From: Eledone cirrhosa
Taxonomy: Eukaryota
DNA: 64,000 nt
Direction of reading: 5' to 3'
NCBI GenBank assembly: GCA_964016885.1
Contig: OZ024741.1
Location: 275,900,001-275,964,000 of the forward strand
Both the position numbers and the translations under genes were made by a program. Positions within the stretch are counted from its first letter, which is position 1. Each line of letters begins with the position of its first letter. Positions 2,136 to 41,407 of the stretch are shown piece by piece. The notes under the pieces were generated by a model. That model searched no databases, had not been told where the DNA came from, and saw only the letters and a list, made by a program, of their open reading frames with translations.

Positions 2136-5100
2136 ATAAATATATTTCACACACACATACATAAACACATATAAAGGCATACATAAATACATATAGCTAC
2201 ACAGTAAGGATTACACATCTATAAATATACTTCACACACATACATACATAAATACATATAACTACACAGTAAGGATTACACATCTATAAATATATTTCAC
2301 ACACATACATAAATACATATAGCTACACAGTAAGGATTACACATCTATAAATATATTTCACACACACACATACATAAATACATATAGCTACACAGTAAGG
2401 ATTACACATCTATAAATATATTTCACACACATACATACATAAATACATATAACTACAGTAAGGATTACACATCTATAAATATATTTCACACACACATACA
2501 TAAATACATATAACTACACAGTAAGGATTACACATCTATAAATATATTTCACACACACACATACATAAATACATATAACTACACAGTAAGGATTACACAT
2601 CTATAAATATATTTCACACACACACATACAAAAATACATATAACTACACAGTGAGGATTACACATCTATAAATATATTTAACACACACACATACATAAAT
2701 ACATATAACTACACAGTAAGGATTACACATCTATAAATATATTTCACACACACACATACATAAATACATATAACTACACAGTAAGGATTACACATCTATA
2801 AATATATTTCACACACACACATACATAAATACATATAACTACACAGTGAGGATTACACATCTATAAATATATTTCACACACACACATACATAAATACATA
2901 TAGCTACACAGTATGGATTACACATCTATAAATATATTTCACACACACACACATACATAAATACATATAGCTACACAGTAAGGATTACACATCTATAAAT
3001 ATATTTCACACACACACATACATAAATACATATAACTACACAGTGAGGATTACACATCTATAAATATATTTCACACACACACATACATAAATACATATAA
3101 CTACACAGTAAGGATTACACATCTATAAATATATTTCACACACACACATACATAAATACATATAGCTACACAGTAAGGATTACACATCTATAAATATATT
3201 TCACACACATACATACATAAATACATATAACTACACAGTGAGGATTACACATCTATAAATATATTTCACACACACACATACAAAAATACATATAACTACA
3301 CAGTAAGGATTACACATCTATAAATATATTTCACAGACACACATACATAAATACATATAACTACACAGTAAGGATTACACATCTATAAATATATTTCACA
3401 CACATACATAAATACATATAGCTACACAGTAAGGATTACACATCTATAAATATATTTCACACACACACATACATAAATACATATAGCTACACAGTAAGGG
3501 TTACACATCTATAAATATATTTCACACACATACATACATAAATACATATAACTACAGTAAGGATTACACATCTATAAATATATTTCACACACACATACAT
3601 AAATACATATAACTACACAGTAAGGATTACACATCTATAAATATATTTCACACACACACATACATAAATACATATAACTACACAGTAAGGATTACACATC
3701 TATAAATATATTTCACACACACACATACATAAATACATATAACTACACAGTAAGGATTACACATCTATAAATATATTTCACACACACACATACATAAATA
3801 CATATAACTACACAGTGAGGATTACACATCTATAAATATATTTCACACACACACATACATAAATACATATAGCTACACAGTATGGATTACACATCTATAA
3901 ATATATATCACACACACACATACATAAATACATATAGCTATACAGTAAGGATTACACATCTATAAATATATTTCACACACACACATACATAAATACATAT
4001 AACTACACAGTGAGGATTACACATCTATAAATATATTTCACACACACACATACATAAATACATATAACTACACAGTAAGGATTACACATCTATAAATATA
4101 TTTCACACACACATACATAAATACATATAGCTACACAGTAAGGATTACACATCTATAAATATATTTCACACACACATACATAAATACATATAACTACACA
4201 GTAAGGATTACACATCTATAAATATATTTCACACACACACATACATAAATACATATAACTACACAGTAAGGATTACACATCTATAAATATATTTCACACA
4301 CATACATACATAAATACATATAACTACACAGTAAGGATTACACATCTATAAATATATTTTACACACACACATACATAAATACATATAACTACACAGTAAG
4401 GATTACACATCTATAAATATATTTCACACACACACATACATAAATACATATAACTACACAGTATGAATTACACATCTATAAATATATTTCACACACACAC
4501 ATACATAAATACATATAGCTACACAGTAAGGATTACACACATCTATAAATATATTTCACACACACATACATAAAAACATATAACTACACAGTAAGGATTA
4601 CACATCTATAAATATATTTCACACACATACATAAATACATATAACTACACAGTAAGGATTACACATCTATAAATATATTTCACACACATACATACATAAA
4701 TACATATAACTACACAGTAAGGATTACACATCTATAAATATATTTCACAAACATACATACATAAATACATATAACTACACAGTAAGGATTACACATCTAT
4801 AAATATATTTCACACACATACATAAATACATATAGCTACACAGTAAGGATTACACATCTATAAATATATTTCACACACACACATACATAAATACATATAA
4901 CTACACAGTGAGGATTACACATCTATAAATATATTTCACACACATACAAAAATACATATAACTACACAGTGAGGATTACACATCTATAAATATATTTCAC
5001 ACACACACATACATAAATACATATAACTACAAAGTGAGGATTACACATCTATAAATATATTTCACACACACACATACAAAAATACATATAACTACACAGT

Positions 5101-6890
5101 GAGGATTACACATCTATAAATATATTTCACACACACACATACAAAAATACATATAACTACACAGTGAGGATTACACATCTATAAATATATTTCACACACA
5201 TACATAAATACATATAGCTACACAGTAAGGATTACACATCTATAAATATATTTCACACACATACATAAATACATATAGCTACACAGTAAGGATTACACAT
5301 CTATAAATATATTTCACACACACACATACATAAATACATATAACTACACAGTAAGGATTACACATCTATAAATATATTTCACACACACACATACATAAAT
5401 ACATATAACTACACAGTAAGGATTACACATCTATAAATATATTTCACACACACACATACATAAATACATATAGCTACACAGTAAGGATTACACATCTATA
5501 AATATATTTCACACACACATACATAAATACATATAACTACACAGTAAGGATTACACATCTATAAATATATTTCACACACACACATACATAAATACATATA
5601 ACTACACAGTAAGGATTACACATCTATAAATATATTTCACACACACATACATAAATACATATAACTACACAGTAAGGATTACACATCTATAAATATATTT
5701 CACACACACACATACATAAATACATATAACTACACAGTAAGGATTACACATCTATAAATATATTTCACACACATACATACATAAATACATATAACTACAC
5801 AGTATGGATTACACATCTATAAATATATTTCACACACACACATACATAAATACATATAGCTACACAGTAAGGATTACACACATCTATAAATATATTTCAC
5901 ACACACATACATAAATACATATAACTACACAGTAAGGATTACACATCTATAAATATATTTCACACACATACATAAATACATATAACTACACAGTAAGGAT
6001 TACACACATCTATAAATATATTTCACACACATACATAAATACATATAACTACACAGTAAGGATTACACATCTATAAATATATTTCACACACATACATACA
6101 TAAATACATATAACTACACAGTAAGGATTACACATCTATAAATATATTTCACACACATACATACATAAATACATATAACTACACAGTGAGGATTACACAT
6201 CTATAAATATATTTCACACACATACAAAAATACATATAACTACACAGTGAGGATTACACATCTATAAATATATTTCATACACACACATACATAAATACAT
6301 ATAACTACACAGTGAGGATTACACATCTATAAATATATTTCACACACACACATACAAAAATACATATAACTACACAGTGAGGATTACACATCTATAAATA
6401 TATTTCACACACACACATACAAAAATACATATAACTACACAGTGAGGATTACACATCTATAAATATATTTCACACACATACATAAATACATATAGCTACA
6501 CAGTAAGGATTACACATCTATAAATATATTTCACACACATACATAAATACATATTATAAATATATTTCACACACACACATACATAAATACATATAACTAC
6601 ACAGTGAGGATTACACATCTATAAATATATTTCACACCCACACATACATAAATACATATAACTACACAGTAAGGATTACACATCTATAAATATATTTCAC
6701 ACACACACATACATAAATACATATAGCTACACAGTAAGGATTACACATCTATAAATATATTTCACACACATACATAAATACATATAACTACACAGTAAGG
6801 ATTACACATCTATAAATATATTTCACACACACACACATACATAAATACATATAGCTACACAGTAAGGATTACACACATCTATAAATATAA
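2136..6890. repeat. ~60-bp tandem satellite, roughly 80 units
   Basis: Unit ctacacagtaaggattacacatctataaatatatttcacacacacacatacataaatacatataa with variable internal (CA)n. Confidence 0.97.
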
Positions 6891-23956: not shown

Positions 23957-25540
23957 CATCATCATCATCATCATCATCGTTTAACGTCCATCTTCCACGC
24001 TTGCATGGGTTTGGACGGGAGTTTTCCCACTTGAGGCAAGAGTGGTTGTCTTGCTCGTATAGGACTGTCTGGCGGGTTTTCTACGGCTGGATGCCCTTCC
24101 TAACACCAACCATGTTTACAGTGTGGAACTGGGAGGTTTTTACCGTGTTACCAACACGGCCACATTACAGCGTGGACTGTGTGTTTTTTTGTCATGACAC
24201 CTACACAACCTCATTTATTTTGGATTGGATGTTGTGGTACCAACATAACTTCACATATTTTTGTTAGAGGTGCCTACTGACTGTAGTAGGTTTCGTTTTG
24301 TACTTAGGCAAGGCGGGTCTTCTGTATTACTGTGTAGCGCCAAAGATCTCGGTCCAGTGACATTGTCTTGGAGAGGTGTAAGTGTGTGAGGTCGGAATTT
24401 ATCAAGTTGTCCCAGGTTTTTCTGGGTCTGCCTACTCCGTGGCTACCGTCTATTTTTATCGCCCTGCACTCTTTTATACAGTTGTCATCTTTCATGCGCA
24501 TCACGTGACTGTACCAATGTAGTCTTCTCTCGAGTAAACAACATCTGATCCCTCTTATTCCTAATTTCTCCCTTAGTTCATTTATGCTTTGCCGTTCACG
24601 TATATTACTATTACACATCCAACAGAGCATGCAAGCTTCGTTCCTCTCCCGACTGCGTATATCCTCTGCACACAATGCCCAAGTCTCACTGCCATGTAAC
24701 ATTGCTGTTCGTATGCAGGCATCATACAGCCTGCCTTCCATTTTTAGAGAGAAACCTTTAGCGGCCAATAGTGGTATAAGCTCGCTGAACTTTTTCCATC
24801 CCGTTCTAACTGTAGCTACTGTACTTTCAGAGCACTCTCCACCACTGCTGATTTTGTCACCCAGGTAACGGAAGGTGTCCACTATTTCTATAGAGCCATC
24901 TGTGCAATGGAATGAGCTAGTATTCTGTGGGCACTTGCTGCTACTTATTGCACCTGAGCACCGGCCACATATAAAATCTATATTCTTAGTTAGCTTACCT
25001 GTGATCCCACTACATCTTTTATGCACCCATACTTTGCATTTGGGACATAAAATGGAGTTTCTGCCTACTCCTTTCCTACACACTGAACATGGCCATTTCC
25101 CAGATGGGACCAGTGCCCTATTTTCCTTCCTACAAACTAGAACTTTAGTCTTAGACAGGTTAATTTTAAGGCCTTTTGATTCTAGGCCATGCTTTCATGT
25201 TTGGAATTTCTTCTCTATTTCAGCCATTGATTCAGCTATGAGCGTTAGATGATCTGTGTATAGGAATTCCCATGGGCAGCCGGTCTTGAACTCCTCTGTT
25301 ATAGCCTGAAGGGCAATAATAAATAGGAGGGGGCTAAGGACGGAGCCCTGATGAACACCAACTTTTACGCTAAACTCTTCACTATATTCGTTGTTAATTC
25401 TAACCTTGCTGACTGTTTCTTTATACATGGCTTGTATAGCTCTCACAAGCCATTCATCAACACCTAGTTTTCTAAGAGCCCACCTGATAATGGGGCGTGG
25501 GACTCTGTCAAAGGCTTTCTCCATAGCAACAAAAGCTAAG
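23957..25540 (-). mobile_element. RTE LINE family A, 5'-truncated
   Basis: ORFs 25195-25524 and 24304-25083; closely similar to the 20828-23015 copy. Confidence 0.95.
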
Positions 25541-25564
25541 TATATATATATATATATATATATA

Positions 25565-27328
25565 TGTCATTATGTCATTATGAGAGATTGATGAATGTGG
25601 AGAACAAATGGGAGAGAGAGAAATTACCCTTGGTAGATCTGACAGAGGGACCAGCTATTGAGATTGACGAATATAGGGTCCAAGAGGCGATTAGGGAAAT
25701 GAAAAATGGTAAGGCTGCCGGACCATCGGGAATAGTTGCTGAGATGCTGAAGGCATCAGGGGACGTAGGCACTAAACTGGTTGCACACGTCATCAATCAG
25801 GCTATATATGCTGGTGTCATACCCAAAGACTGGTGCAGCAGTATTCTCATAAATTGCTACAAAGGTAAAGGGGATGCTTTGGAGAGGAGCAATTATAGGG
25901 GTATAAAACTGATAGATCAGGTTATGAAAGTGGCAGAAAGGATTTTAGCACAACTAATTAGAGAAAGGGTCAAACTGGATGAGATGCAATTTGGTTTTGT
26001 GCCTGGGAAGAGTACAACAGATGCCCTCTTCTTGGTGAGACAATTGCAAGAGAGGTTCTTAGAGAAGAATAAGCCACTATACTTAGCCTTTGTTGACCTA
26101 GAGAAGGCCTTTGATAGGGTACTCCGATCTGTCATCTGGTGGTCCCTAAGGAAACTAGGTGTTGAGGAATGGCTTGTGAGAACAGTACAAACTTTGTACA
26201 GAGGTGCTGTCAGTAAAGTCAGGGTAGGAATGGAGTTTAGTGAGGAATTCCAGATACAAGTAGGAGTACATCCAGGTTTGGTCCTCACCCAGCTCTTGTT
26301 CATTATAGTCCTCAAGCCATAACAGAGGAGTTTAAGACTGGCTGTCCATGGAAACTTCTCCATGCTGACGATCTGGTTCTTATAGCAGAATCAGTAGAGG
26401 AGCTAGAGAATAAATTCTGGCTATGGAAACAGCAGTTGGAAGCAAGAGGACTGAGAGTGAACCTAGCTAAGACAAAAGTGTTGATGAGTAGAAAAGAGGA
26501 CAAAACTCGGATTCCGTCAGGGAAATGGCCATGTTCGATATGCAGAAAAGGAACTGGCATAAATTCTATAAAATGCACACAATGCAGATCCTGGGTACAC
26601 AAGAGATGTAGCGGGATAGCAGGCAAACTAACAGGTAGGGAGAAATATGTATGCAGTAGATGTACAGGGAAATTAGACAGTAGAAGTCGCATTGATAGAC
26701 ACATTTTTCAAATGCAGGAGGGCGCTATAGAAGTGGTGGATAGCTTCCGGTACCTAGGAGATCAGATTAGCATGGGAGGAGGGTGTTCCGAGGCCATAGT
26801 ATCTAGAATAAGGGCGGGTTGGAAGAAGTTTAGGGAGCTGCTTCCTCTGTTGACGAAGAAGGGTTTCTCCCTGCGTATGAAAGGCCGGTTGTATGATGCC
26901 TGTGTGAGGAGCGCGATGCTGCATGGTAGTGAGACATGGGAGCAACTGCAGAGGATATGCGACGGCTGGAGAGAAATGAGGCAAGCATGCTCCGTTGGAT
27001 GTGCAGTGTAAATGTGCGTGAACGACCCAGCATAAATGTGTTGAGAGAAAAACTGTGTCTGAGAGGGATAGAATGTAGTATACGGGAGAAGAGACTGAGG
27101 TGGTATGGAAATGTGATGCGCACGGAGGATGACCGATGGGTGAAGAAGTGCCAGTTGAAGGAAGACGTGGTAGAGGTAGACCACGTAAAACATGGGCGGA
27201 GGTGGTGAGAACAGACCTCAGATCATTGAAGCTCATGGTGGAGATGACGAGAGACCGTGACGAGTGGAGAGATGCTGTGCTGAATAAGACCTGTCCCACC
27301 CTTGCAAGCAAGGAAAAGCGGACGTAAA

Positions 27329-27362
<34 letters not shown>
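25565..27362 (+). mobile_element. RTE LINE family B (ORF runs to the tail), 5'-truncated
   Basis: ORFs 25564-26322, 26436-27011, 26936-27208 and 27136-27327, ending KTCPTLASKEKRT* immediately before (GAT)n. Confidence 0.95.
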
Positions 27363-27363
<1 letters not shown>

Positions 27364-27450
27364 ATATATATATATGTGTGTGAATAAATGAAGTAATTCC
27401 GTCGGAAAAGTCCAGGAAAAAAGGGTGCTCTATGTAGGTTACAGAGCTTA

Positions 27451-27647
27451 ATAGTTATGTAATAAACAGCATAAGGCAATTATTCCATTTACCAGTGGTT
27501 TCTTAAAAGCAAAAAATTTTGCTTTCAATCCTCAGAATGAAAAAAGAGACCAGGATTTTTTCATTCTGAGGATTGAAAGCAAAATTTTTTGTTTTTAAGA
27601 AACCACTGGTAAATGGAATAATTGCCTTATGTTGTTTATTACATAAC

Positions 27648-27650
<3 letters not shown>
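27451..27650. repeat. 200-bp near-perfect palindrome with 3' half-hammerhead-like arms
   Basis: ~95-bp arms around gagaccagga; minus-strand arm reads aggatt GAAA gcaaaa-tt-ttttgc TT. Confidence 0.8.
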
Positions 27651-27688
<38 letters not shown>

Positions 27689-27689
27689 G

Positions 27690-27721
<32 letters not shown>

Positions 27722-27797
27722 TATACATTATGAAGAGAGAAGAAACATTTAGATATAATTAGTAATAAAATGTATCATACCTAAACTGCTCCTAAAT

Positions 27798-27887
27798 TCC
27801 TCGACTACGTAGTTTCGTGGCATAAACAAAAACAATATATCATAAAGACATAGAGTCCCTGCGAGGTCTGCCGACTTATCAAGAGGA
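27798..27887 (-). ncRNA. Type I hammerhead ribozyme, U3-A8 variant (copy 1)
   Basis: tcctc TTGATAA gt(c)ggca...tgccac GAAA cta-cg-tag TC gagga. Confidence 0.8.
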
Positions 27888-28392
27888 TACCTCATTTTAC
27901 TAGTCTCAAGAACGCGTCTACACGACGTGAGAAAGAATCCCAAAAGGCGGAGGGGGAGATAGTCACGCGATATAACGGTTGAGAAACAGAGCTAAGCCTC
28001 CTATAACCTCGAAGAAAATACCACGGAGGCGGAGGGGGTATTTATATCGAGGCCGCAGAAGAGGTGGTGAAGAAGGCGAGAAGTATGAGTAATGGAAGCT
28101 TTCCAGCTGTCCCCACACTTCAAAGATTGCTCGACCAGAGGGAGTTATTAACAATATATTTAGAAACACACAGATACATGCGGACACACACATATATACA
28201 TGAATGCATCCGCACCCAACTGTGAGTTAAGGGTGCCAACTTCACCGATGTTGCTCAATGAATGACTGGGACAGACCAATTCAGTTGAACTAGACTGAAC
28301 CAGTATCAGAGTTAAAAATACATTATGAAGAGAGAAGAAACATTTAGATATAATTAGTAATAAAATGTATCATACCTAAACTGCTCCTAAAT

Positions 28393-28482
28393 TCCTCGAC
28401 TACGTAGTTTCGTGGCATAAACAAAAACAATATATCATAAAGACATAGAGTCCCTGCGAGGTCTGCCGACTTATCAAGAGGA
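28393..28482 (-). ncRNA. Type I hammerhead ribozyme, U3-A8 variant (copy 2)
   Basis: Identical to copy 1, 595 bp away. Confidence 0.8.
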
Positions 28483-29320
28483 TACCTCATTTTACTAGTC
28501 TCAAGAACGCGTCTACACGACGTGAGAAAGAATCCCAAAAGGCGGAGGGGGAGATAGTCACGCGATATAACGGTTGAGAAACAGAGCTAAGCCTCCTATA
28601 ACCTCGAAGAAAATACCACGGAGGCGGAGGGGGTATTTATATCGAGGCCGCAGAAGAGGTGGTGAAGAAGGCGAGAAGTATGAGTAATGGAAGCTTTCCA
28701 GCTGTCCCCACACTTCAAAGATTGCTCGACCAGAGGGAGTTATTAACAATATATTTAGAAACACACAGATACATGCGGACACACACATATATACATGAAT
28801 GCATCCGCACCCAACTGTGAGTTAAGGGTGCCAACTTCACCGATGTTGCTCAATGAATGACTGGGACAGACCAATTCAGTTGAACTAGACTGAACCAGTA
28901 TCAGAGTTAAAAATACATTATGAAGAGAGAAGAAACATTTAGATATAATTAGTAATAAAATGTATCATACCTAAACTGCTCCTAAATTCTAAATGCGGAT
29001 GCATTCATGTATATATGTGTGTGTCCGCATGTATCTGTGTGTTTCTAAATATATTGTTAATAACTCCCTCTGGTCGAGCAATCTTTGAAGTGTGGGGACA
29101 GCTGGAAAGCTTCCATTACTCATACTTCACGCCTTCTTCACCACCTCTTCTGCGGCCTCGATATAAATACCCCCTCCGCCTCCGTGGTATTTTCTTCGAG
29201 GTTATAGGAGGCTTAGCTCTGTTTCTCAACCGTTATATCGCGTGACTATCTCCCCCTCCGCCTTTTGGGATTCTTTCTCACGTCGTGTAGACGCGTTCTT
29301 GAGACTAGTAAAATGAGGTA

Positions 29321-29410
29321 TCCTCTTGATAAGTCGGCAGACCTCGCAGGGACTCTATGTCTTTATGATATATTGTTTTTGTTTATGCCACGAAACTACG
29401 TAGTCGAGGA
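29321..29410 (+). ncRNA. Type I hammerhead ribozyme, U3-A8 variant (copy 3)
   Basis: Stem I tcctc 29321-25 / gagga 29406-10; core TTGATAA 29326-32; GAAA 29392-95; predicted cleavage after C29405. Confidence 0.8.
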
Positions 29411-29915
29411 ATTTAGGAGCAGTTTAGGTATGATACATTTTATTACTAATTATATCTAAATGTTTCTTCTCTCTTCATAATGTATTTTTAACTCTGATAC
29501 TGGTTCAGTCTAGTTCAACTGAATTGGTCTGTCCCAGTCATTCATTGAGCAACATCGGTGAAGTTGGCACCCTTAACTCACAGTTGGGTGCGGATGCATT
29601 CATGTATATATGTGTGTGTCCGCATGTATCTGTGTGTTTCTAAATATATTGTTAATAACTCCCTCTGGTCGAGCAATCTTTGAAGTGTGGGGACAGCTGG
29701 AAAGCTTCCATTACTCATACTTCTCGCCTTCTTCACCACCTCTTCTGCGGCCTCGATATAAATACCCCCTCCGCCTCCGTGGTATTTTCTTCGAGGTTAT
29801 AGGAGGCTTAGCTCTGTTTCTCAACCGTTATATCGCGTGACTATCTCCCCCTCCGCCTTTTGGGATTCTTTCTCACGTCGTGTAGACGCGTTCTTGAGAC
29901 TAGTAAAATGAGGTA

Positions 29916-30005
29916 TCCTCTTGATAAGTCGGCAGACCTCGCAGGGACTCTATGTCTTTATGATATATTGTTTTTGTTTATGCCACGAAACTACGTAGTC
30001 GAGGA
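29916..30005 (+). ncRNA. Type I hammerhead ribozyme, U3-A8 variant (copy 4)
   Basis: Identical to copy 3; predicted cleavage after C30000. Confidence 0.8.
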
Positions 30006-30744
30006 ATTTAGGAGCAGTTTAGGTATGATACATTTTATTACTAATTATATCTAAATGTTTCTTCTCTCTTCATAATGTATTTTTAACTCTGATACTGGTT
30101 CAGTCTAGTTCAACTGAATTGGTCTGTCCCAGTCATTCATTGAGCAACATCGGTGAAGTTGGCACCCTTAACTCACAGTTGGGTGCGGATGCATTCATGT
30201 ATATATGTGTGTGTCCGCATGTATCTGTGTGTTTCTAAATATATTATATATATATATATATATATAATCCCACCGTCTTCACATCCATTCCAATATCATA
30301 CATGAATCTTTCTCTCTCTCTCTCTGTCTGTCTCTCTCTCTCTTGCTTTCTATCATTCATTCTATTATCTTATCTTGTCACCTCCCTAATTCCCCCCTAT
30401 TTATCTTTTGTTAATCTCTCTTCTCTTGCTTGCGCAATCTTTTCTTTCCTCCTTCTTTCCCTACATTTCACTATTTGTTAGCTTGACTGTCAGCTGGCTG
30501 CTGAATATTTTATATTCTCGCTTCATTCTACCCTGTCAATATCTCTCACTTACATAACTTTCAATCTTATGTCACTCTCTTTATGATAATTTTTTAATCT
30601 CTCCTCCATTTCTCTAAGCCCAGTTAATGCTTTTTCCTTCCAGTGAGGCAAAAAGAGAGAAAGAGAGACAAACCAACTAAAAAACTTGACACGTGACTAA
30701 GGATTTTATATCTTACAAGGTTTTCCCTTCAACATCATCAATGT

Positions 30745-31611
30745 CAATCTCAGTCACAATCTCGTTATTATCACAATCTCGTTATTGTCAGTCACAATCT
30801 CTTTATTATCAGTCACAATCTCGTTATTATCACAATCTCATTATTGTCACAATCTCGTTATTGTCACAATTTCGTTATTATCAGTCAAAATCTCGTTATT
30901 ATCAGTCCCAATCTCATTATTGTCTGTCACAATCTCGTTATTATCGCAATCTCGTTATTATCAGTCCCAATCTCGTTATTATCAGTCCCATTCTCGTTAT
31001 TGTCTGTCATAATGTCGTTATTATCACAATCTCGTTATTATCAGTCACAATCTCATTATAGCTCACAATCTCGTTATTATCAGTCACAATCTCGTTATAT
31101 CAGTCACAATCTCGTTACTGTCAGTCACAATCTCGTTATTATCAGTCACAATCTCGTTATTATCAGTCACAATCTCGTTATTATCAGTCACAGTCGCGTT
31201 ATTATCAGTCACAATCTCGTTATTATCAGTCACAACCTCGTTATTATCAGTCACAATCTCGTTATTATCAGTCACAGTCGCGTTATTATCAGTCACAATC
31301 TCGTTATTATCAGTCACAATCTCGTTATTAGCAGTCACAATCTCGTTATTATCAGTCACAATGTCGTTATATCAGTCACAATCTCGTTACTGTCAGTCAC
31401 AATCTCGTTATTATCAGTCACAATCTCGTTATTATCAGTCACAATCTCGTTATTATCAGTCACAGTCGCGCTATTATCAGTCACAATCTCGTTATTATCA
31501 GTCACAATCTCGTTACTGTCAGTCACAATCTCGTTATTATCAGTCACAATCTCGTTACTGTCAGTGACAATCTCGTTACTGTCAGTCACAATCTCGTTAC
31601 TGTCAGTCACA
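30745..31611. repeat. 21-bp minisatellite (tcagtcacaatctcgttatta) with 17-bp variants
   Basis: Direct inspection. Confidence 0.95.
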
Positions 31612-31849
31612 GTTGGGTGGGTAAATGGGTGGATGCATGGGTAGCTGGATGGGTGGAAGAATGGGTAGATGGGTGAAGGCATGTATGGATGTGTGAATGG
31701 GTAAATACGTGGATGGGTGGGTGGTTGACTGGAGGGATGGGTGGGTTAATACAGAGGGTGTATGGATATGCAATAATTTTAATTTCCATATTTTCCAAGT
31801 TAGCCTGGCCTAAATAAACATATGAATAGCAAAAATCAATCATGTTCCC

Positions 31850-34800
31850 ACAATTGGTACAACCACTCACTGGGGTGTCACTCTAGATGTGCTACTGGTA
31901 CAACCAGTTGTGGGGTGTCACTCTAGATGTGACACTGGTACAACCAATTGTTGGGGTGTCACTCTAGATGTGCCACTGGTACAACCAGTTGTTGGGGTGT
32001 CACTCTAGATGTGCTACTGGTACAACCAGTTGTTGGGGTGTCACTCTAGATGTGACACTGGTACAACCAGTTGTTGGGGTGTCACTCTAGATGTGCCACT
32101 GGTAAGTCAGTTGTTGGGGTGTCATTCTAGATGTGCCACTGGTACAGTCAGTTGTTGGGGTTCCATTCTAGATGTGCCACTGATACAGTCAGTTGTTGGG
32201 GGACCACTCTAGATGTGCCACTGGTACAGTCAGTTGTTGGGTGCCACTCTATATGTGCCACTAGTACAGCCAGTTGTTGGGGTGTCACTCTAGATGTGCC
32301 ACTGGTACAACCAGTTGTTGGGTTTCACTCTAGATGTGCCACTGGTACAATCAGTTGTTGGGGTGTCACTCTAGATGTGTCACTGGTACAGTCAGTTGTT
32401 GGGGTGTCACTCTAGATGTGCCACTGGTACAACCAGTTGTTGGGGTGCCACTCTAGATGTGCCACTGGTACAGTCACTTGTTGGGGTGTCACTTAGATGT
32501 GTCACTGGTACAGCCAGTTGTTGGGGTACCACTCAAGATGTGCCACTGGTACAGTCAGTTGTTGGGTGCCACTCTAGATGTGCCACTGGTACAGTCAGTC
32601 GTTGGTGTGTGACTCTAGATGTGCCACTGGTACAACCAGTTGTTGGGGTGTCACTCTAGATGTGCCACTGGTACAGTCAGTTGTTGGGGTGTCACTCTAG
32701 ATGTGCCACTGGTACAGTCAGTTGTTGGGGTGTCACTCTAGATGTGCCACTGGTACAGTTAGTTGTTGGTGTGTCACTCTAGATGTGCCACTGGTACAAC
32801 CAGTTGTTGGGGTGTCACTCTAGATGTGCTACTGGTACAACCAGTTGTTGGGGTGTCACTCTAGATGTGACACTGGTACAACCAGTTGTTGGGGTGTCAT
32901 TCTAGATGTGCCACTGGTACAGCCAGTTGTTGGGGTTCCACTCTAGATGTGCCACTGATACAGTCAGTTGTTGGGGTACCACTCTAGATGTGCCACTGGT
33001 ACAGTCAGTTGTTGGGTGTCACTCTGGATGTGCCACTGGTACAGTCAGTTGTTGGGGTGTCACTCTAGATGTGTCACTGGTACAGCCAGTTGTTGGGGTG
33101 TCACTCTAGATGTGCCACTGGTACAGTCAGTTGTTGGGTGTCACTCTAGACGTGCCACTGGTACAGCCAGTTGTTGGGGTGTCACTCTAGATGTGCCACT
33201 GGTACAGTCAGTTGCTGGGGTACCACTCTAGATGTGCCACTGGTACAGTCAGTTGTTGGGGTGTCACTCTAGATGTGCCACTGGTACAGTCAGTTGTTGG
33301 GGTGTCACTCTAGATGTGTCACTGGTACAGTCAGTTGTTGGGGTGCCACTCTAGATGTGCCACTGGTACAGTCAGTTGTTGGGGTTTCACTCTAGATGTG
33401 CCACTGGTACAGTCAGTTGTTGGGGTGTCACTTAGATGTGCCACTGGTACAGTCAGTTGTTGGGTGCCACTCTAGATGTTCCACTGGTACAGTCAGTTGT
33501 TGGGGTGCCACTCTAGATGTGCCACTGGTACAGTCAGTTGTTGGGGTGTCACTCTAGATGTGCCACAGGTACAACCAGTTGTTGGGGTGTCACTCTAGAT
33601 GTGCCACTGGTACAGCCAGTTGTTGGGGTGTCACTCTAGTAGTGCCACTTGTACAGCCAGTTGTTGGGGTGCCACTCTAGATGTGCCACTGGTACAGCCA
33701 GTTGTTGGGGTACCACTCTAGTAGTGCCACTTGTACAGCCAGTTGTTGGGGTGCCACTCTAGATGTTCCACTGGTACAGTCAGTTGTTGGGGTGTCACTC
33801 TAGATGTGCCACTGGTACAGTCAGTTGTTGGGGTTCCACTCTAGATGTGCCACTGGTACAGTCAGTTGTTGGGTACCACTCTAGATGTGCCACTGGTACA
33901 GTCAGTTGTTGGGGTGCCACTCTAGATGTGCCACTGGTACAGTCAGTTGCTGGGGTACCAGTCTAGATGTGCCACTGGTACAGTCAGTTGTTGGGGTGTC
34001 ACTCTAGATGTTCCACTGGTACAGTCAGTTGTTGGGTGCCACTCTAGATGTGCCACTGGTACAGCCAGTTGTTGGGGTTTCACTCTAGATGTGCCACTGG
34101 TACAGTCAGTTGTTGGGGTGTCACTCTAGATGTGCCACTGGTACAGTCAGTTGTTGGGTGCCACTCTAGATGTGCCACTGGTACAGTCAGTTGTTGGGGT
34201 GCCACTCTAGATGTGCCACTGGTACAGTCAGTTGCTTGGGTACCAGTCTAGATGTGCCACTGGTACAGTCAGTTGTTGGGGTGTCACTCTAGATGTGCCA
34301 CTGGTACAGTCAGTTGCTTGGGTGCCACTCTAGATGTTCCACTGGTACAGTCAGTTGTTGGGGTGCCACTCTAGATGTGCCACTGGTACAGTCAGTTGCT
34401 TGGGTGCCACTCTAGATGTTCCACTGGTACAGTCAGTTGTTGGGGTTCCACTCTAGATGTGCCACTGGTACAGTCAGTTGTTGGCGTGTCACTCTAGATG
34501 TGCCACTGTTACAACCAGTTGTTGGGGTGTCACTCTAGATGTGCCACTGGTACAGTCAGTTTCTGGGGTGCCACTCTGGATGTGCCACTGGTACAGCCAG
34601 TTTTTGGGGTACCACTCTAGATGTGCCACTGGTACACTCAGTTGCTGGGGTACCACTCTAGATGTGCCACTGGTACAGACAGTTGCTGGGGTGCCACTCT
34701 AGATGTTTTACTGGTACAGCCAGCTATTGGGGTGCCACTCTAGATGTGCCACTGGTACAGTCAGTTGTTGTGTGCCACTCTAGATGTGCCACTGGTGTAG

Positions 34801-37800
34801 CCAGTCGTTGGGATCCCACTCTAGACGTGCCACTGGTGTAGCCAGTCGTTGGGATGCCACTCTAGATGTGCCACTGGTGTAGCCAGTCGTTGGGATGCCA
34901 CTCTAGATGTGCCACTGGTACAGCCAGTCGTTGGGATGCCACTCTAGATGTGCCACTGGTACAGTCAGTTGTTGGGGTGTCACTCTAGATGTGTCACTGG
35001 TACAGCCAGTTGTTGGGGTGTCACTCTAGATGTGCCACTGGTACAGTCAGTTGTTGGGGTGCCACTCTAGTGTGCCACTGGTACAGTTTAGTTGTTGGGG
35101 TGCCACTCTAGATGTGCCACTGGTACAGCCAGTTGTTGGGGTACCACTCTAGATGTGCCACTGGTACAGTCAGTTGTTGGGGTGTCACTCTAGATGTGCC
35201 ACTGGTACAGTCAGTTGTTGGGGTACCACTCTAGATGTGCCACTGGTACAGTCAGTTGTTGGGTGCCACTCTAGATGTGCCACTGGTACAACCAGTTGTT
35301 GGGTGCCACTCTAGATGTGCCACTGGTACAGCCAGTTGTTGGGGTACCACTCTAGATGTACCACTGGTACAGTCAGTTGTTGGGTGCCACTCTAGATGTG
35401 CCACTGGTACAGTCAGTTGTTGGGGTTTCACTCTAGATGTGCCACTGGTACAGTCAGTTGTTGGCGTGTCACTCTAGATGTGCCACTGGTACAGTCAGTT
35501 GTTGGGGTGCCACTCTAGATGTGCCACTGGTACAGCCAGTTGTTGGGGTGTCACTCTAGATGTGCCACTGGTACAATCAGTTGTTGGGGTGTCACTCTAG
35601 AAGTGTCACTGGTACAGTCAGTTGTTGGGGTGTCACTCTAGATGTGCCACTGGTACAGCCAGTTGTTGGGGTGTCACTCTAGATGTGCCACGGGTACAGT
35701 CAGTTTTTGGGGTGCCACTCTAGATGTGCCACTGGTACAGCCAGTTGTTGGGGTGTCACTCTAGATGTGCCACTGGTACAGTCAGTTGTTGGGGTGTCAC
35801 TTAGATGTGTCACTGGTACAGCCAGCTGTTGGGGTGCCACTCTAGATGTGTCACTGGTACAGCCAGCTGTTGGGGTGCCACTCTAGATGTGCCACTGGTA
35901 CAGTCAGTTATTGGGTGCCACTCTAGATGGTACAGCCAGTTGTTGGGGTGTCACTCTAGATGTGCCACTGGTACAGTCAGTTGTTGGGGTGTCACTCTAG
36001 ATGTGTCACTGGTATAGTCAGTTGTTGGGTCCCACTCTAGATGTGACACTGGTACAACCAGTTGTTGGGTGCCACTCTAGATGTGCCACTGGTACAGCCA
36101 GTTGTTGGGGTACCACTCTAGATGTGCCACTGGTACAGTCAGTTGTTGGGTACCACTCTAGATGTGCCACTGGTACAGTCAGTTGTTGGGTACCACTCTA
36201 GATGTGCCACTGGTACAGCCAGTTGTTGGGGTACCACTCTAGATGTGCCACTGGTACAACCAGTTGTTGGGAGTGCCACTCTAGATGTGCCACTGGTACA
36301 GTCAGTTGCTGGGGTGCCACTCTAGATGTGCCACTGGTACAGTCAGTTGTTGGGTACCAGTCTAGATGTGCCACTGGTACAGTCAGTTGCTGGGGTACCA
36401 GTCTAGATGTGACACTGGTACAATCAGTTGTTGGGTGCCACTCTAGATGTGCCACTGCTACAGTCAGTTGTTGGAGTGTCACTCTAGATGTGCCACTGGT
36501 ACAGTTAGTTGTTGGGGTGTCACTCTAGATGTACCACTGGTACAGCCAGTTGTTGGGTGCCACTCTAGATGTGCCACTGGTACAACCAGATGTTGGGGTG
36601 TCACTCTAGATGTGCCACTGGTACAGCCAGTTGTTGGGATACCACTCTAGATGTGCCACTGGTACAACCAGTTGTTGGGTGTCACTCTAGATATTCCACT
36701 GTTACAGCCAGTTGTTGGGATTCCACTCTAGATGTGCCACTATTACAACCAGTTGTTGGGAGTTCCACTCTAGACGTGCCACTGGTACACTCAGTTGTTG
36801 GGTGCCACTCTAGATGTGCCACTGGTACAGTCAGTTGTTGGGTCCCACTCTAGATGTGCCACTGGTACAGTCAGTTGTTGGGGTGTCACTCTAGATGTGC
36901 CACTGGTACAGTCAGTTGTTGGGGTGTCACTTAGATGTGTCACTGGTACAGCCAGCTGTTGGGGTGCCACTCTAGATGTGCCACTGGTACAGTCAGTTAT
37001 TGGGTGCCACTCTAGATGGTACAGCCAGTTGTTGGGGTGTCACTCTAGATGTGCCACTGGTACAGTCAGTTGTTGGGGTGTCACTCTAGATGTGTCACTG
37101 GTATAGTCAGTTGTTGGGTGCCACTCTAGATGTGCCACTGGTACAACCAGTTGTTGGGTGCCACTCTAGATGTGCCACTGGTACAGCCAGTTGTTGGGGT
37201 GCCACTCTAGATGTGCCACTGGTACAGTCAGTTGTTGGGTACCACTCTAGATGTGCCACTGGTACAGTCAGTTGTTGGGTAACACTCTAGATGTGCCACT
37301 GGTACAGCCAGTTGTTGGGGTACCACTCTAGATGTGCCACTGGTACAACCAGTTGTTGGGAGTGCCACTCTAGATGTGCCACTGGTACAGTCAGTTGCTG
37401 GGGTGCCACTCTAGATGTGCCACTGGTACAGTCAGTTGTTGGGTACCAGTCTAGATGTGCCACTGGTACAGTCAGTTGCTGGGGTACCAGTCTAGATGTG
37501 CCACTGGTACAGTCAGTTGTTGGGTGCCACTCTAGATGTGCCACTGCTACAGTCAGTTGTTGGAGTGTCACTCTAGATGTGCCACTGGTACAGTTAGTTG
37601 TTGGGGTGTCACTCTAGATGTACCACTGGTACAGCCAGTTGTTGGGATTCCACTCTAGATGTGCCACTGGTACAACCAGATGTTGGGGTGTCACTCTAGA
37701 TGTTCCACTGGTACAGCCAGTTGTTGGGATTCCACTCTAGATGTGCCACTAGTACAACCAGTTGTTGGGAGTGCCACTCTAGACGTGCCACTGGTACAGT

Positions 37801-40800
37801 CAGTTGTTGGGGTGCCACTCTAGATGTGCCACTGGTACAGTCAGTTGTTGGGTCCCACTCTAGATGTGCCACTGGTACAGTCAGTTGTTGGTGTGTCACT
37901 CTAGATGTGCCATTGGTACAGTCAGTTGTTGGGGTGTCACTCTAGATGTGCCACTAGTACAACCAGTTGTTGGGGCGTCACTCTAGATGTTCCACTGCTA
38001 CAGTCAGTTGTTGGGGTGCCACTCTAGATGTGCCACTGGTACAGCCAGTTGTTGGGGTACCACTCTAGATGTGCCACTGGTACAGTCAGTTGTTGGGGTG
38101 TCACTCTAGATGTGCCACTAGTACAACCAGTTGTTGGGGTGTCACTCTAGATGTTCCACTGCTACAGTCAGTTGTTGGGGTGCCACTCTAGATGTGCCAC
38201 TGGTACAGCCAGTTGTTGGGGTCTCACTCTAGATGTGCCACTGGTACAACCAGTTGTTGGGGTGTCACTCTAGATGTGCCACTGGTACAGTCAGTTGTTG
38301 GGGTACCACTCTAGATGTGCCACTGGTACAGTCAGTTGTTGGGGTGTCACTCTAGATGTGTCACTGGTATAGTCAGTTGTTGGGTGCCACTATAGATGTG
38401 CCACTGGTACAGCCAGTTGTTGGGGTACCACTCTAGATGTGCCACTGGTACAGTCAGTTGCTGGGGTACCACTCTAGATGTGCCACTGGTACAGTCAGTT
38501 GTTGGGGTCCCACTCTAGATGTGCCACTGGTACAACCAGTTGTTGGGGTGTCACTCTAGATGTGCCACTGGTACAGCCAGTCGTTGCGGTGCCACTCTAG
38601 ATGTGCCACTGGTACAGTCAGTTGTTGGGGTGTCACTCTAGATGTGCCACTAGTACAACCAGTTGTTGGGGTGTCACTCTAGATGTTCCACTGCTACAGT
38701 CAGTTGTTGGGGTGCCACTCTAGATGTGCCACTGGTACAACCAGATGTTGGGATGTCACTCTAGATGTGCCACTGGTACAGCCAGTTGTTGGGATTCCAC
38801 TCTAGATGTGCCACTGGTACAACCAGTTGTTGGGTGTCACTCTAGATGTTCCACTGGTACAGCCAGTTGTTAGGATTCCACTCTAGATGTGCCACTAGTA
38901 CAACCAGTTGTTGGGAGTGCCACTCTAGACGTGCCACTGGTACAGTCAGTTGTTGGGGTGCCACTCTAGATGTGCCACTGGTACAGTCAGTTGTTGGGTC
39001 CCACTCTAGATGTGCCACTGGTACAGTCAGTTGTTGGGGTGCCACTCTAGATGTGCCACTGGTACAGTCAGTTGTTGGGGTGTCACTCTAGATGTGCCAC
39101 TAGTACAACCAGTTGTTGGGGTGCCACTCTAGATGTGCCACTGGTACAGCCAGTTGTTGGGGTACCACTCTAGATGTGCCACTGGTACAGTCAGTTGTTG
39201 GGGTGTCACTCTAGATGTGCCACTGGTACAGTCAGTTGTTGGGGTGTCACTCTAGATGTGCCACTAGTACAACCAGTTGTTGGGGTGTCACTCTAGATGT
39301 TCCACTGCTACAGTCAGTTGTTGGGGTGCCACTCTAGATGTGCCACTGGTACAGCCAGTTGTTGCGGTGTCACTCTAGATGTGCCACTGGTACAGTCAGT
39401 TGTTGGGTCCCACTCTAGATGTGCCACTGGTACAGTCAGTTGTTGGGGTACCACTCTAGATGTGCCACTGGTACAGTCAGTTGTTGGTGTGCCACTCTAG
39501 ATGTGCCACTGGTATAGTCAGTTGTTGGGTGCCACTATAGATGTGCCACTGGTACAGCCAGTTGTTGGGGTACCACTCTAGATGTGCCACTGGTACAGTC
39601 AGTTGCTGGGGTACCACTCTAGATGTGCCACTGGTACAGTCAGTTGTTGGGGTCCCACTCTAGATGTGCCACTGGTACAACCAGTTGTTGGGGTGTCACT
39701 CTAGATGTGCCACTGGTATAGTCAGTTGTTGGGTGCCACTCTAGATGTGCCACTGGTACAGCCAGTTGTTGGGGTACCACTCTAGATGTGCCACTGGTAC
39801 AGTCAGTTGTTGGGATGTCACTCTAGATGTGCCACTGGTACAGTCAGTTGTTGGGGTGTCACTCTAGATGTGCCACTAGTACAACCAGTTGTTGGGGTGT
39901 CACTCTAGATGTTCCACTGCTACAGTCAGTTGTTGGGGTGCCACTCTAGATGTGCCACTGGTACAACCAGTTGTTGGGTGTCACTCTAGATGTTCCACTG
40001 GTACAGCCAGTTGTTAGGATTCCACTCTAGATGTGCCACTAGTACAACCAGTTGTTGGGAGTGCCACTCTAGACGTGCCACTGGTACAGTCATTTGTTGG
40101 GGTGCCACTCTAGATGTGCCACTGGTACAGTCAGTTGTTGGGTCCCACTCTAGATGTGCCACTGGTACAGTCAGTTGTTGGGGTGTCACTCTAGATGTGC
40201 CACTGGTACAGTCAGTTGTTGGGGTGTCACTCTAGATGTGCCACTAGTACAACCAGTTGTTGGGGTGCCACTCTAGATGTGCCACTGGTACAGCCAGTTG
40301 TTGGGGTACCACTCTAGATGTGCCACTGGTACAGTCAGTTGTTGGGGTGTCACTCTAGATGTGCCACTAGTACAACCAGTTGTTGGGGTGTCACTCTAGA
40401 TGTTCCACTGCTACAGTCAGTTGTTGGGGTGCCACTCTAGTTGTGCCACTGGTACAGCCAGTTGTTGGGGTGTCACTCTAGATGTGCCACTGGTACAGTC
40501 AGTTGTTGGGTGCCACTCTAGATGTGCCACTGGTACAGTCAGTTGTTGGGGTACCACTCTAGATGTGCCACTGGTACAGTCAGTTGTTGGGGTGCCACTC
40601 TAGATGTGCCACTGGTACAGTCAGTTGTTGGGGTGTCACTCTAGATGTGTCACTGGTACAGTCAGTTGTTGGGGTGTCACTCTAGATGTGCCACTGGTAC
40701 AACCAGTTGTTGGGGTGTCACTCTAGATGTGCCACTGGTACAGCCAGTCGTTGCGGTGCCACTCTAGATGTGCCACTGGTACAGTCAGTTGTTGGGGTAT

Positions 40801-41407
40801 CACTCTAGATGTGCCACCGGTGCAGCCTGTCGTTGGGGTGCCACTTTAGTTGTGCCACTGGTACAGCCACTCGCCGGGTGTCATTCTAGATGTGCCACTG
40901 GTACAGCCACTGGCTTGGGTGCCACTCAAGATGCACCAGTGATACAATCAGTTGTTGGGGTGCCACTCTAGATGTGCCACTGGTGCAGTTAGTTGTTGGG
41001 GTGCCACTCTAGATGTGTCACTGGTGCTGCCTGTCGTTGGGGTTCCACTCTAGATGTGCCACTGGTGCAGCCAGTCGTTGGGGTTTCACTCAAGATGTCC
41101 CACTGGTGCAGTTAGTTGTTGGGGTGCCACTCTAGATGAACCAGTGGTACAGTCAGTTGTTGGGGTGCCACTCTAGATGTGCCACTGGTGCAGTTAGTTG
41201 TTGGGGTCCCATTCTAGATGTGCCCCTGGTACAGTCAGTTGTTGGGATGCCACTCTAGATGTGCCACTGGTACAGCCACCCTAGATGTGTCACTTGTGCA
41301 GCCACTCGCTGGGGTGCCACTCTAGATGTGCCACAGGTACAGCCAGTCATTGGGGTTCCACTTTAGATGTGCCACTGGTGCAGTCATTGTTGGGGTCCCA
41401 CTCTAGA
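31850..41407. repeat. 41-bp satellite, ~9.5 kb and ~230 units, with higher-order repeats
   Basis: Unit ctctagatgtgccactggtacagtcagttgttggggtgtca with 40-bp variants; divergent edges. Confidence 0.98.

Follow-up and report, generated by a model that had tools for sequence, protein, structure and literature searches.

A very young insertion of two head-to-head arrays of a non-coding 595-nt repeat with a predicted hammerhead, and a one-A-plus-one-B rule for the 3' ends of its family

The window, the whole 64-kb stretch of DNA analysed here, contains a head-to-head pair of arrays of a 595-nt unit, flanked by (TA)n (Table 1). Units are numbered from the first base after a predicted GUC ribozyme cut (position 1), and a single base differs among the 4.2 units present. 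The left (A) arm of 1267 nt lacks the GAG of positions 1-3 and has no mismatches, the right (B) arm of 1252 nt has one mismatch (29129), and the 3' end of each arm points outward into (TA)n. The arm lengths, the TAAA filler between the arms and a left 5' end lying 3 nt past the predicted cut all agree with the original prediction, and unit mapping also bears out its outward 3' ends merging into (TA)n and its arms of more than two units each. The filler is a continuation of neither arm. Together with the next T it reads TAAAT, as do the last bases of the arm, which suggests that it was probably templated, likely by the TAAAT at 28983-28987 (CTAAAT repeats 10 nt upstream). The 595-nt period, a longest stop-free stretch of 87 aa and a GC content of 0.42-0.43 mark a non-coding tandem unit, and an open reading frame for reverse transcriptase plus GIY-YIG endonuclease is absent from it. 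The locus is a very young head-to-head insertion of this hammerhead-motif repeat. A near-perfect palindrome of 200 nt (27451-27650; 95-nt arms, 98%) adjoins the left (TA)n tract; it resembles a small DNA element with inverted repeats and appears to have no relation to the unit. The window also contains large minisatellites of 41 nt x 234 (31871-41407), 65 nt x 68 (2178-6553) and 21 nt x 42 (30750-31611).

Table 1. Features of the head-to-head insertion, in window positions.
Feature	Position	Strand	Basis
Left (TA)n target remnant	27648..27722	.	sequence
A arm of 2.13 units, from unit position 4 (5' end) to fixed site A at position 80 (3' end)	27723..28989	-	
Terminal A module: predicted long hairpin, 3' side ending UGUUUCU, plus 18 nt to the end site	27723..27802	-	predicted fold
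Predicted type I hammerhead (UUGAUAA core, long stem II, palindromic stem III)	27798..27887	-	manual; no Rfam match
Predicted type I hammerhead, second copy in left arm	28393..28482	-	manual
Filler TAAA, 4 nt, at head-to-head junction	28990..28993	+	sequence
B arm of 2.10 units, from unit position 184 (5' end) to fixed site B at position 245 (3' end)	28994..30245	+	
Predicted type I hammerhead, cut after 29405	29321..29410	+	manual
Predicted type I hammerhead, cut after 30000	29916..30005	+	manual
Terminal B module: predicted long hairpin, 3' side ending UGUAUCU (unit 220-226), plus 18 nt to position 244	30173..30245	+	predicted fold
Right (TA)n target remnant	30246..30266	.	sequence

Each unit carries a predicted type I hammerhead, found by hand, with stem I (UCCUC/GAGGA), a UUGAUAA core, a long stem II, GAAA, a palindromic stem III and the GUC. 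An Rfam search with E up to 1 returned no hammerhead in 25000-33000 and matched only microRNA-like hairpin noise. The stem III regions of two copies are computed to pair at -14.3 kcal/mol, and the folding of the unit is far stronger than that of its shuffles (z -7.05). A relative of the unit, about 80% identical (487 of 605 aligned columns; 154 matches in the genome), keeps the hammerhead core and stem III, and its changes in stem I preserve pairing. Penelope hammerheads have been described with a U3-A8 core and with a palindromic stem III through which dimers fold (PMC4209133; this and the other papers are cited for the parts drawn on here).

The unit represents a dispersed, high-copy mobile family, as a 26-mer spanning the predicted cut has 5134 exact matches in the 3.0-Gb source genome. 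A first sample consisted of the window and 78 stretches, of which 38 were chosen by similarity and 40 were the first new places along C1. Its 81 insertions comprise 45 head-to-head and 36 single ones, with no tail-to-tail arrangement, and its 130 segments end at site A in 63 cases (59 at exactly position 80), at site B in 58 (positions 243-252) and elsewhere in 9. Genome-wide, site A followed by TA has 2457 matches and site B followed by AT-rich sequence has 1864, against 6 for the longest internal TA run (position 206). Therefore, the 3' ends sit at two programmed sites, A (80) and B (about 245), rather than at the best microhomology, and priming by the longest TA microhomology is ruled out by its six matches. 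The expectation that reverse transcription was primed inside the RNA at (TA)n thus stands for the internal positions and falls for the use of any AT-rich microhomology. A DNA transposon with inverted ends is also ruled out, since the inversion point and the length are individual to each copy. Sites A and B are 165 nt apart, each lies 18 nt past a UGUWUCU that closes a predicted long hairpin, and both end in AURUAU; judged by these sequence features, the two modules look like a duplicated start module. The predicted fold of the terminal A module is kept in the 80%-identical relative. Loose A and B ends tailed with TA are also present in contigs of runs X1 and X3, possibly from the assembly's own sample.

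The largest insertion seen (L034:764-9234) has 6.7 and 7.55 units head-to-head with only three single-copy differences. L077 and other loci look duplicated in the assembly. Runs X4, X5, X6, X8 and X11, with several organism codes, carry the unit as one or few haplotypes. In the runs labelled as other organisms (X4, X6, X8 and X11), the unit occurs in few contigs, and in X4 as one unit on one 620-nt contig. Among raw DNA reads of organism C (X22; 1938 million letters), only 5 microsatellite-like reads match the unit.

Two-armed insertions follow a one-A-plus-one-B rule. A count made independently of the first sample, using nothing but the end lists for the initial 104.6 Mb of C1, covered 100 A and 74 B ends; each of the 42 pairs of head-to-head neighbours within 10 kb combines an A end with a B end. 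The first sample agrees, with 41 of 45 inverted groups being A+B (window included; one duplicated locus counted twice) and the remaining four having an interrupted arm or two merged insertions. In the 80%-identical relative, 5 of 5 intact pairs are A+B. These counts support the original prediction that both ends of a (TA)n break primed synthesis on the same RNA and are stricter than it, as each DNA end has one fixed site. The fold-back artefact that had been named as the alternative is very unlikely, because fold-back would give like ends (A+A or B+B), which were never seen. The older relative (loci L202-L213) is 596 nt long, and (CT)n takes the place of (TA)n at some of its B ends.

The 5' ends behave otherwise than predicted. 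The junction had been tied to the ribozyme cleavage site, with one cDNA ending at the self-cleaved 5' end, whereas the 5' ends of the family are scattered. Of the ends in the first sample, 1 of 116 lies in positions 1-10 (1.9 expected); among pairs chosen by their outer ends only, the count is 3 of 78 (1.3-1.7 expected), and pooling gives 3 of 132 (2.2 expected). Positions 1-4 hold 1 of the 132 pooled ends (0.9 expected). Short copies stopping at the cut escape the first sample, so the genome was probed for matches beginning in positions 1-4. The probe found 16 matches, and control probes of identical design gave 29 at position 475 and 16 at position 526; the cut-site probe is blind to insertions with A at position 14 (36 of 114, a third), and the corrected count is about 23. 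The 15 other matches, in 13 stretches, include one deletion variant and four that seemingly represent one duplicated insertion. Counted by start, independent copies number about six at position 1, four at position 2 and one at position 3, with one more in the C1 end lists, against 4 and 5 copies at the first position of the respective control probes. There is no pile-up of 5' ends at the GUC cut, with a small excess at position 1 possible, and termination at the self-cleaved end fails as the mechanism of the family; for the window copy alone, it is improbable. The 3-nt distance looks like chance, because a 4-nt target in a 595-nt circle is met by about 1.3% of two-armed insertions, of which there are thousands in the genome, and the family has no pile-up. 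The left arm of the window copy crossed the predicted cut twice before it stopped at position 4, and arms pass over the predicted cut with their sequence unaltered.

At the junctions, at least three bases are shared in 8 of 35 filler-free cases (5% expected); 31 of the 66 junctions, those with fillers or nearby private changes and one without an anchor, were left out of this count. One junction filler, 59 nt long (L098:4906-4964), repeats a 12-nt piece from the 5' end of its own arm about five times. Templated fillers occur in polymerase-theta end joining. Within pairs, arm length shows a weak negative correlation (rho -0.32, p 0.046, n=39), one arm being long and the other short, with rho +0.23 (n=18) in a set picked by the ribozyme. 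The anticorrelation rules out length-matched arms, an idea taken from the two arms of more than two units in the window. The arms overlap in sequence in 36 of 39 pairs, and 40% of 94 arms are longer than one unit. An arm ends within 15 nt of the other arm's start site in 2 and 1 of 66 cases (3.4 expected each), and for a 380-nt threshold on the longer arm, set after seeing the data, the count is 1 of 39 (5.3 expected). A collision model (arms of 430 + 165 nt) and a stop at the partner's site were both ruled out by the arm-end data. The negative correlation of arm lengths would fit one cDNA end annealing along the other and trimming it. At the L095 and L101 junctions both arms begin at one shared position, and overall the 5' ends of the two arms are unrelated.

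The template appears to have been a single RNA. Arms within one insertion differ at 70 of 16,332 sites (0.43%), compared with 29,110 of 1,191,130 (2.4%) between insertions, and in 31 of 37 cases no other locus is closer to an arm than its partner arm. Across 117 insertions, 29 private alleles are fixed in all copies of their insertion (16 of them in both arms), 123 are single-copy and 5 are partial. A 14-unit array has only three singleton differences, and no unit-specific variant was found in both arms of any of 16 long insertions. Because the private alleles are fixed in all units, a step from monomer to multimer is needed, for which a circle is the simplest template; circles have been proposed as templates (PMC4209133, PMC7229834). 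These results support the predicted template longer than one unit, circular or multimeric. The shared haplotype and the fixed private variants favour one RNA monomer that would have been copied repeatedly, although the shared haplotype could instead reflect a single source locus that was active in one cell, and not a single molecule. Three of the 16 long insertions (L086, L168 and L186), which have variants in some units only, do not fit. In L086 and L168 the variants occur in runs of units, and in L186 (335-2907) five successive passes read T, A, T, A, T at one site, the alternation expected of a dimer-length template; the three patterns fit a dimer template, a template switch or a later duplication.

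Alleles present in at most three loci and fixed across their insertion include 16 A>G and 8 T>C changes (p 0.006 against base counts), compared with 10 and 21 among single-copy alleles (Fisher p 0.015 vs the fixed class). The excess is gone for strictly private alleles (5 vs 5), and polarised segregating sites comprise 13 A>G, 5 T>C, 9 G>A and 6 C>T. The A>G excess modestly favours a sense RNA template that may have been edited before copying, presumably by ADAR.

A search for GIY-YIG domains gave 10,595 candidates, of which 150 were scored. Twenty loci with long frames represent about six young families encoding a YLDD reverse transcriptase, a CxxC linker and a GIY-YIG domain at the C terminus, with (TA)n as the target; RVT_1 is below the Pfam cut-off in 2 of 3 proteins tested from these families. 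Their domain order, compared with that given in PMC8557442, suggests that they are Neptune-like. Among head-to-head copies of the six autonomous families with both ends in view, 14 of 14 combine a long end with a short one; where the two are defined, they lie about 35-62 nt apart. This difference is the Penelope tail, which is described as optional and located on one inverted pLTR (PMC3846280) and often occurs at one end only (PMC8557442). Candidate partners with long open frames in (TA)n and two 3' ends each include L142:4809-7622 (-), L144:1775-5062 (+), L145:4822-6729 (-), L157, L159 and L160. Comparison of the unit with 40 GIY-YIG stretches of the 10,595 candidates gave only microsatellite-like matches and no unique similarity to any partner pLTR, and the A/B motif is absent from these 40. 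The lists of hammerheads for the GIY-YIG stretches are incomplete, since the regular expression used did not recognise the hammerhead of the unit itself. A Penelope protein, for which dimerisation is predicted, has been seen in vitro to cut and extend both strands and to begin at two internal RNA sites, by which the tail is defined; uncleaved RNA was the dominant substrate, and the start site did not differ between strands (PMC11167929).

Taken with the paired ends, these features suggest that a Penelope-like reverse transcriptase-endonuclease probably cut (TA)n and extended both DNA ends at sites A and B of the same RNA, which was probably a monomer circle. Tandem transcripts would self-cleave, probably as ribozyme dimers, and be ligated to circles. 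The enzyme, probably as a dimer, would cut (TA)n and hold two hairpin modules of one RNA, giving one to each DNA end. Each copy would run round the circle until it falls off, and the two cDNA 3' ends would be joined by short microhomology or templated filler, with the joining trimming one arm. The left arm of the window copy would have stopped at position 4 by chance, after two passes over the cut. A more specific version, to which we give somewhat less than even credence, is that the enzyme dimer performs programmed twin priming on one RNA circle, with one hairpin-plus-18-nt module per DNA end, both copies rolling and the cDNA ends joined. If true, programmed twin priming would explain the Penelope tail and its presence at one end only, the head-to-head inversion and the tandem retrozyme arrays.

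The template for the same two-ended priming at A and B could have been a linear multimer left uncleaved, or a pair of transcripts from one source array, in which case the ribozyme would be unneeded for insertion. We consider this unlikely, although several results fit it. Ribozyme mutants show normal insertion in vitro, no RNA-seq reads end at the cut (PMC11167929), only 1 of 9 Xenopus retrozyme dimers was cleaved (10.64898/2026.07.22.740005), the absent 5'-end pile-up fits a linear multimer too, and so does the occurrence of variants in runs or alternation of units in L086, L168 and L186. However, a linear multimer needs a separate route from a mutation in one unit to a variant of the whole array, given 29 fixed and 5 partial alleles, and it does not account for the lack of unit-specific variants in both arms of the 16 long insertions. 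Moreover, linear-only copying can only shorten arrays, yet two-fifths of the arms exceed one unit, and the hammerhead core is kept in the 80%-identical relative. Run-off of the left cDNA at the self-cleaved 5' end of a linear RNA has a low probability. The 3-nt distance and the copies starting at positions 1 to 3, counted with a probe that misses a third of insertions, speak for run-off, whereas the control probes gave as many matches or more, the pooled 5' ends in positions 1-4 are at expectation and the window copy starts at position 4, not 1.

Other rivals concern the inversion itself. Self-priming or fold-back on an antisense template, as proposed for Penelope (PMC3846280), and L1-style twin priming on linear RNA would share the head-to-head layout and the junction microhomology, and the arms of L095 and L101 do start at the same position. 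Either is very improbable, as the arms end on different programmed sites, the 5' ends of the two arms are otherwise unrelated and the A>G excess is on the sense strand; for L1-style priming, arm ends beside the other arm's start are also fewer than expected. An assembly or chimeric-read artefact, or array expansion at the DNA level after insertion, is the remotest of these readings. None of the listed contig pieces of runs X1, X3, X4 and X5, which are possibly from another individual and have 2513 further pieces besides, bridges 28989-28994; some loci look duplicated, and assemblers can homogenise tandem units. On the other side, mirror ends were never seen, the junction differs from insertion to insertion, TA-bearing A and B ends are present in the run contigs, and private alleles are common to both sides of the inversion.

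Several known systems share parts of this footprint. In L1 twin priming, two primers from one break give a head-to-head junction with microhomology, and the first cDNA ends beside the second primer site. The 595-nt repeat differs in having fixed sites for both primers, overlapping arms, no poly(A) and no stop at the partner's primer. Metazoan non-LTR retrozymes (PMC7229834; 10.64898/2026.07.22.740005) are likewise non-coding tandem type I hammerhead units with strong self-pairing, thousands of copies and co-occurring Penelope-like elements. Their units are 170-400 nt (PMC7229834) or 51-972 nt (10.64898/2026.07.22.740005) long, compared with 595 nt here, and the parts of these two papers cited here do not describe head-to-head arms or fixed paired ends, which the 595-nt repeat has in addition to its U3-A8 core. 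Metazoan retrozymes are expressed as circular and linear RNA monomers, forms that the 595-nt repeat would take under the reading proposed above. By its sequence, the repeat is a new retrozyme family with a Penelope insertion footprint.

Endonuclease-bearing Penelope-like elements (PMC3846280, PMC8557442) share the head-to-head inverted copy, 5' truncation, microsatellite target and one-end tail, and non-autonomous multicopy forms exist among them (MRC1). Unlike these elements, the 595-nt repeat has no open reading frame, its ends are 165 nt apart rather than 30-40, and each end has its own hairpin module; the one-of-each ends, counted here, are called optional in the description of PMC3846280. 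PAc Poseidon in vitro (PMC11167929) also extends both strands at an AT-rich target and has two internal starts downstream of the hammerhead (about 85-92 nt past the cut, compared with 80 nt for site A). However, the cited parts of that study report uncleaved linear RNA as substrate, no strand preference or one-of-each pairing, and start sites not homologous to the target, whereas both sites of the 595-nt repeat end in AURUAU. The hammerhead of Schistosoma Cercyon (PMC4209133) has U3-A8 covariation, a short stem I and a palindromic stem III for dimer folding, and circles were proposed in that study as templates for more-than-unit copying; the 595-nt repeat has a much longer stem II insert and is non-coding.

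Retrozymes, the Penelope tail and the circle hypothesis are already in print. In the literature found, supplements and subscription papers aside, there were no head-to-head retrozyme arrays with paired fixed ends and no counted pairing rule. The origin of tandem and inverted Penelope-like insertions and the agent that copies animal retrozymes into DNA are left open in the cited parts of PMC8557442, PMC7229834 and 10.64898/2026.07.22.740005. Any mechanism must meet the counts given here, namely the pairing of an A end with a B end, no halt of copying where the ribozyme would cut and a single haplotype in each insertion. A 595-nt substrate with two defined start modules suits the existing in vitro assay, and the repeat, with its duplicated module 165 nt apart, would be a minimal substrate to prove programmed twin priming. 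Another tandem repeat of about 490 nt in the same genome (L152:7579-9901 and L153:1-394) carries a canonical CUGAUGA hammerhead and an inverted arm.
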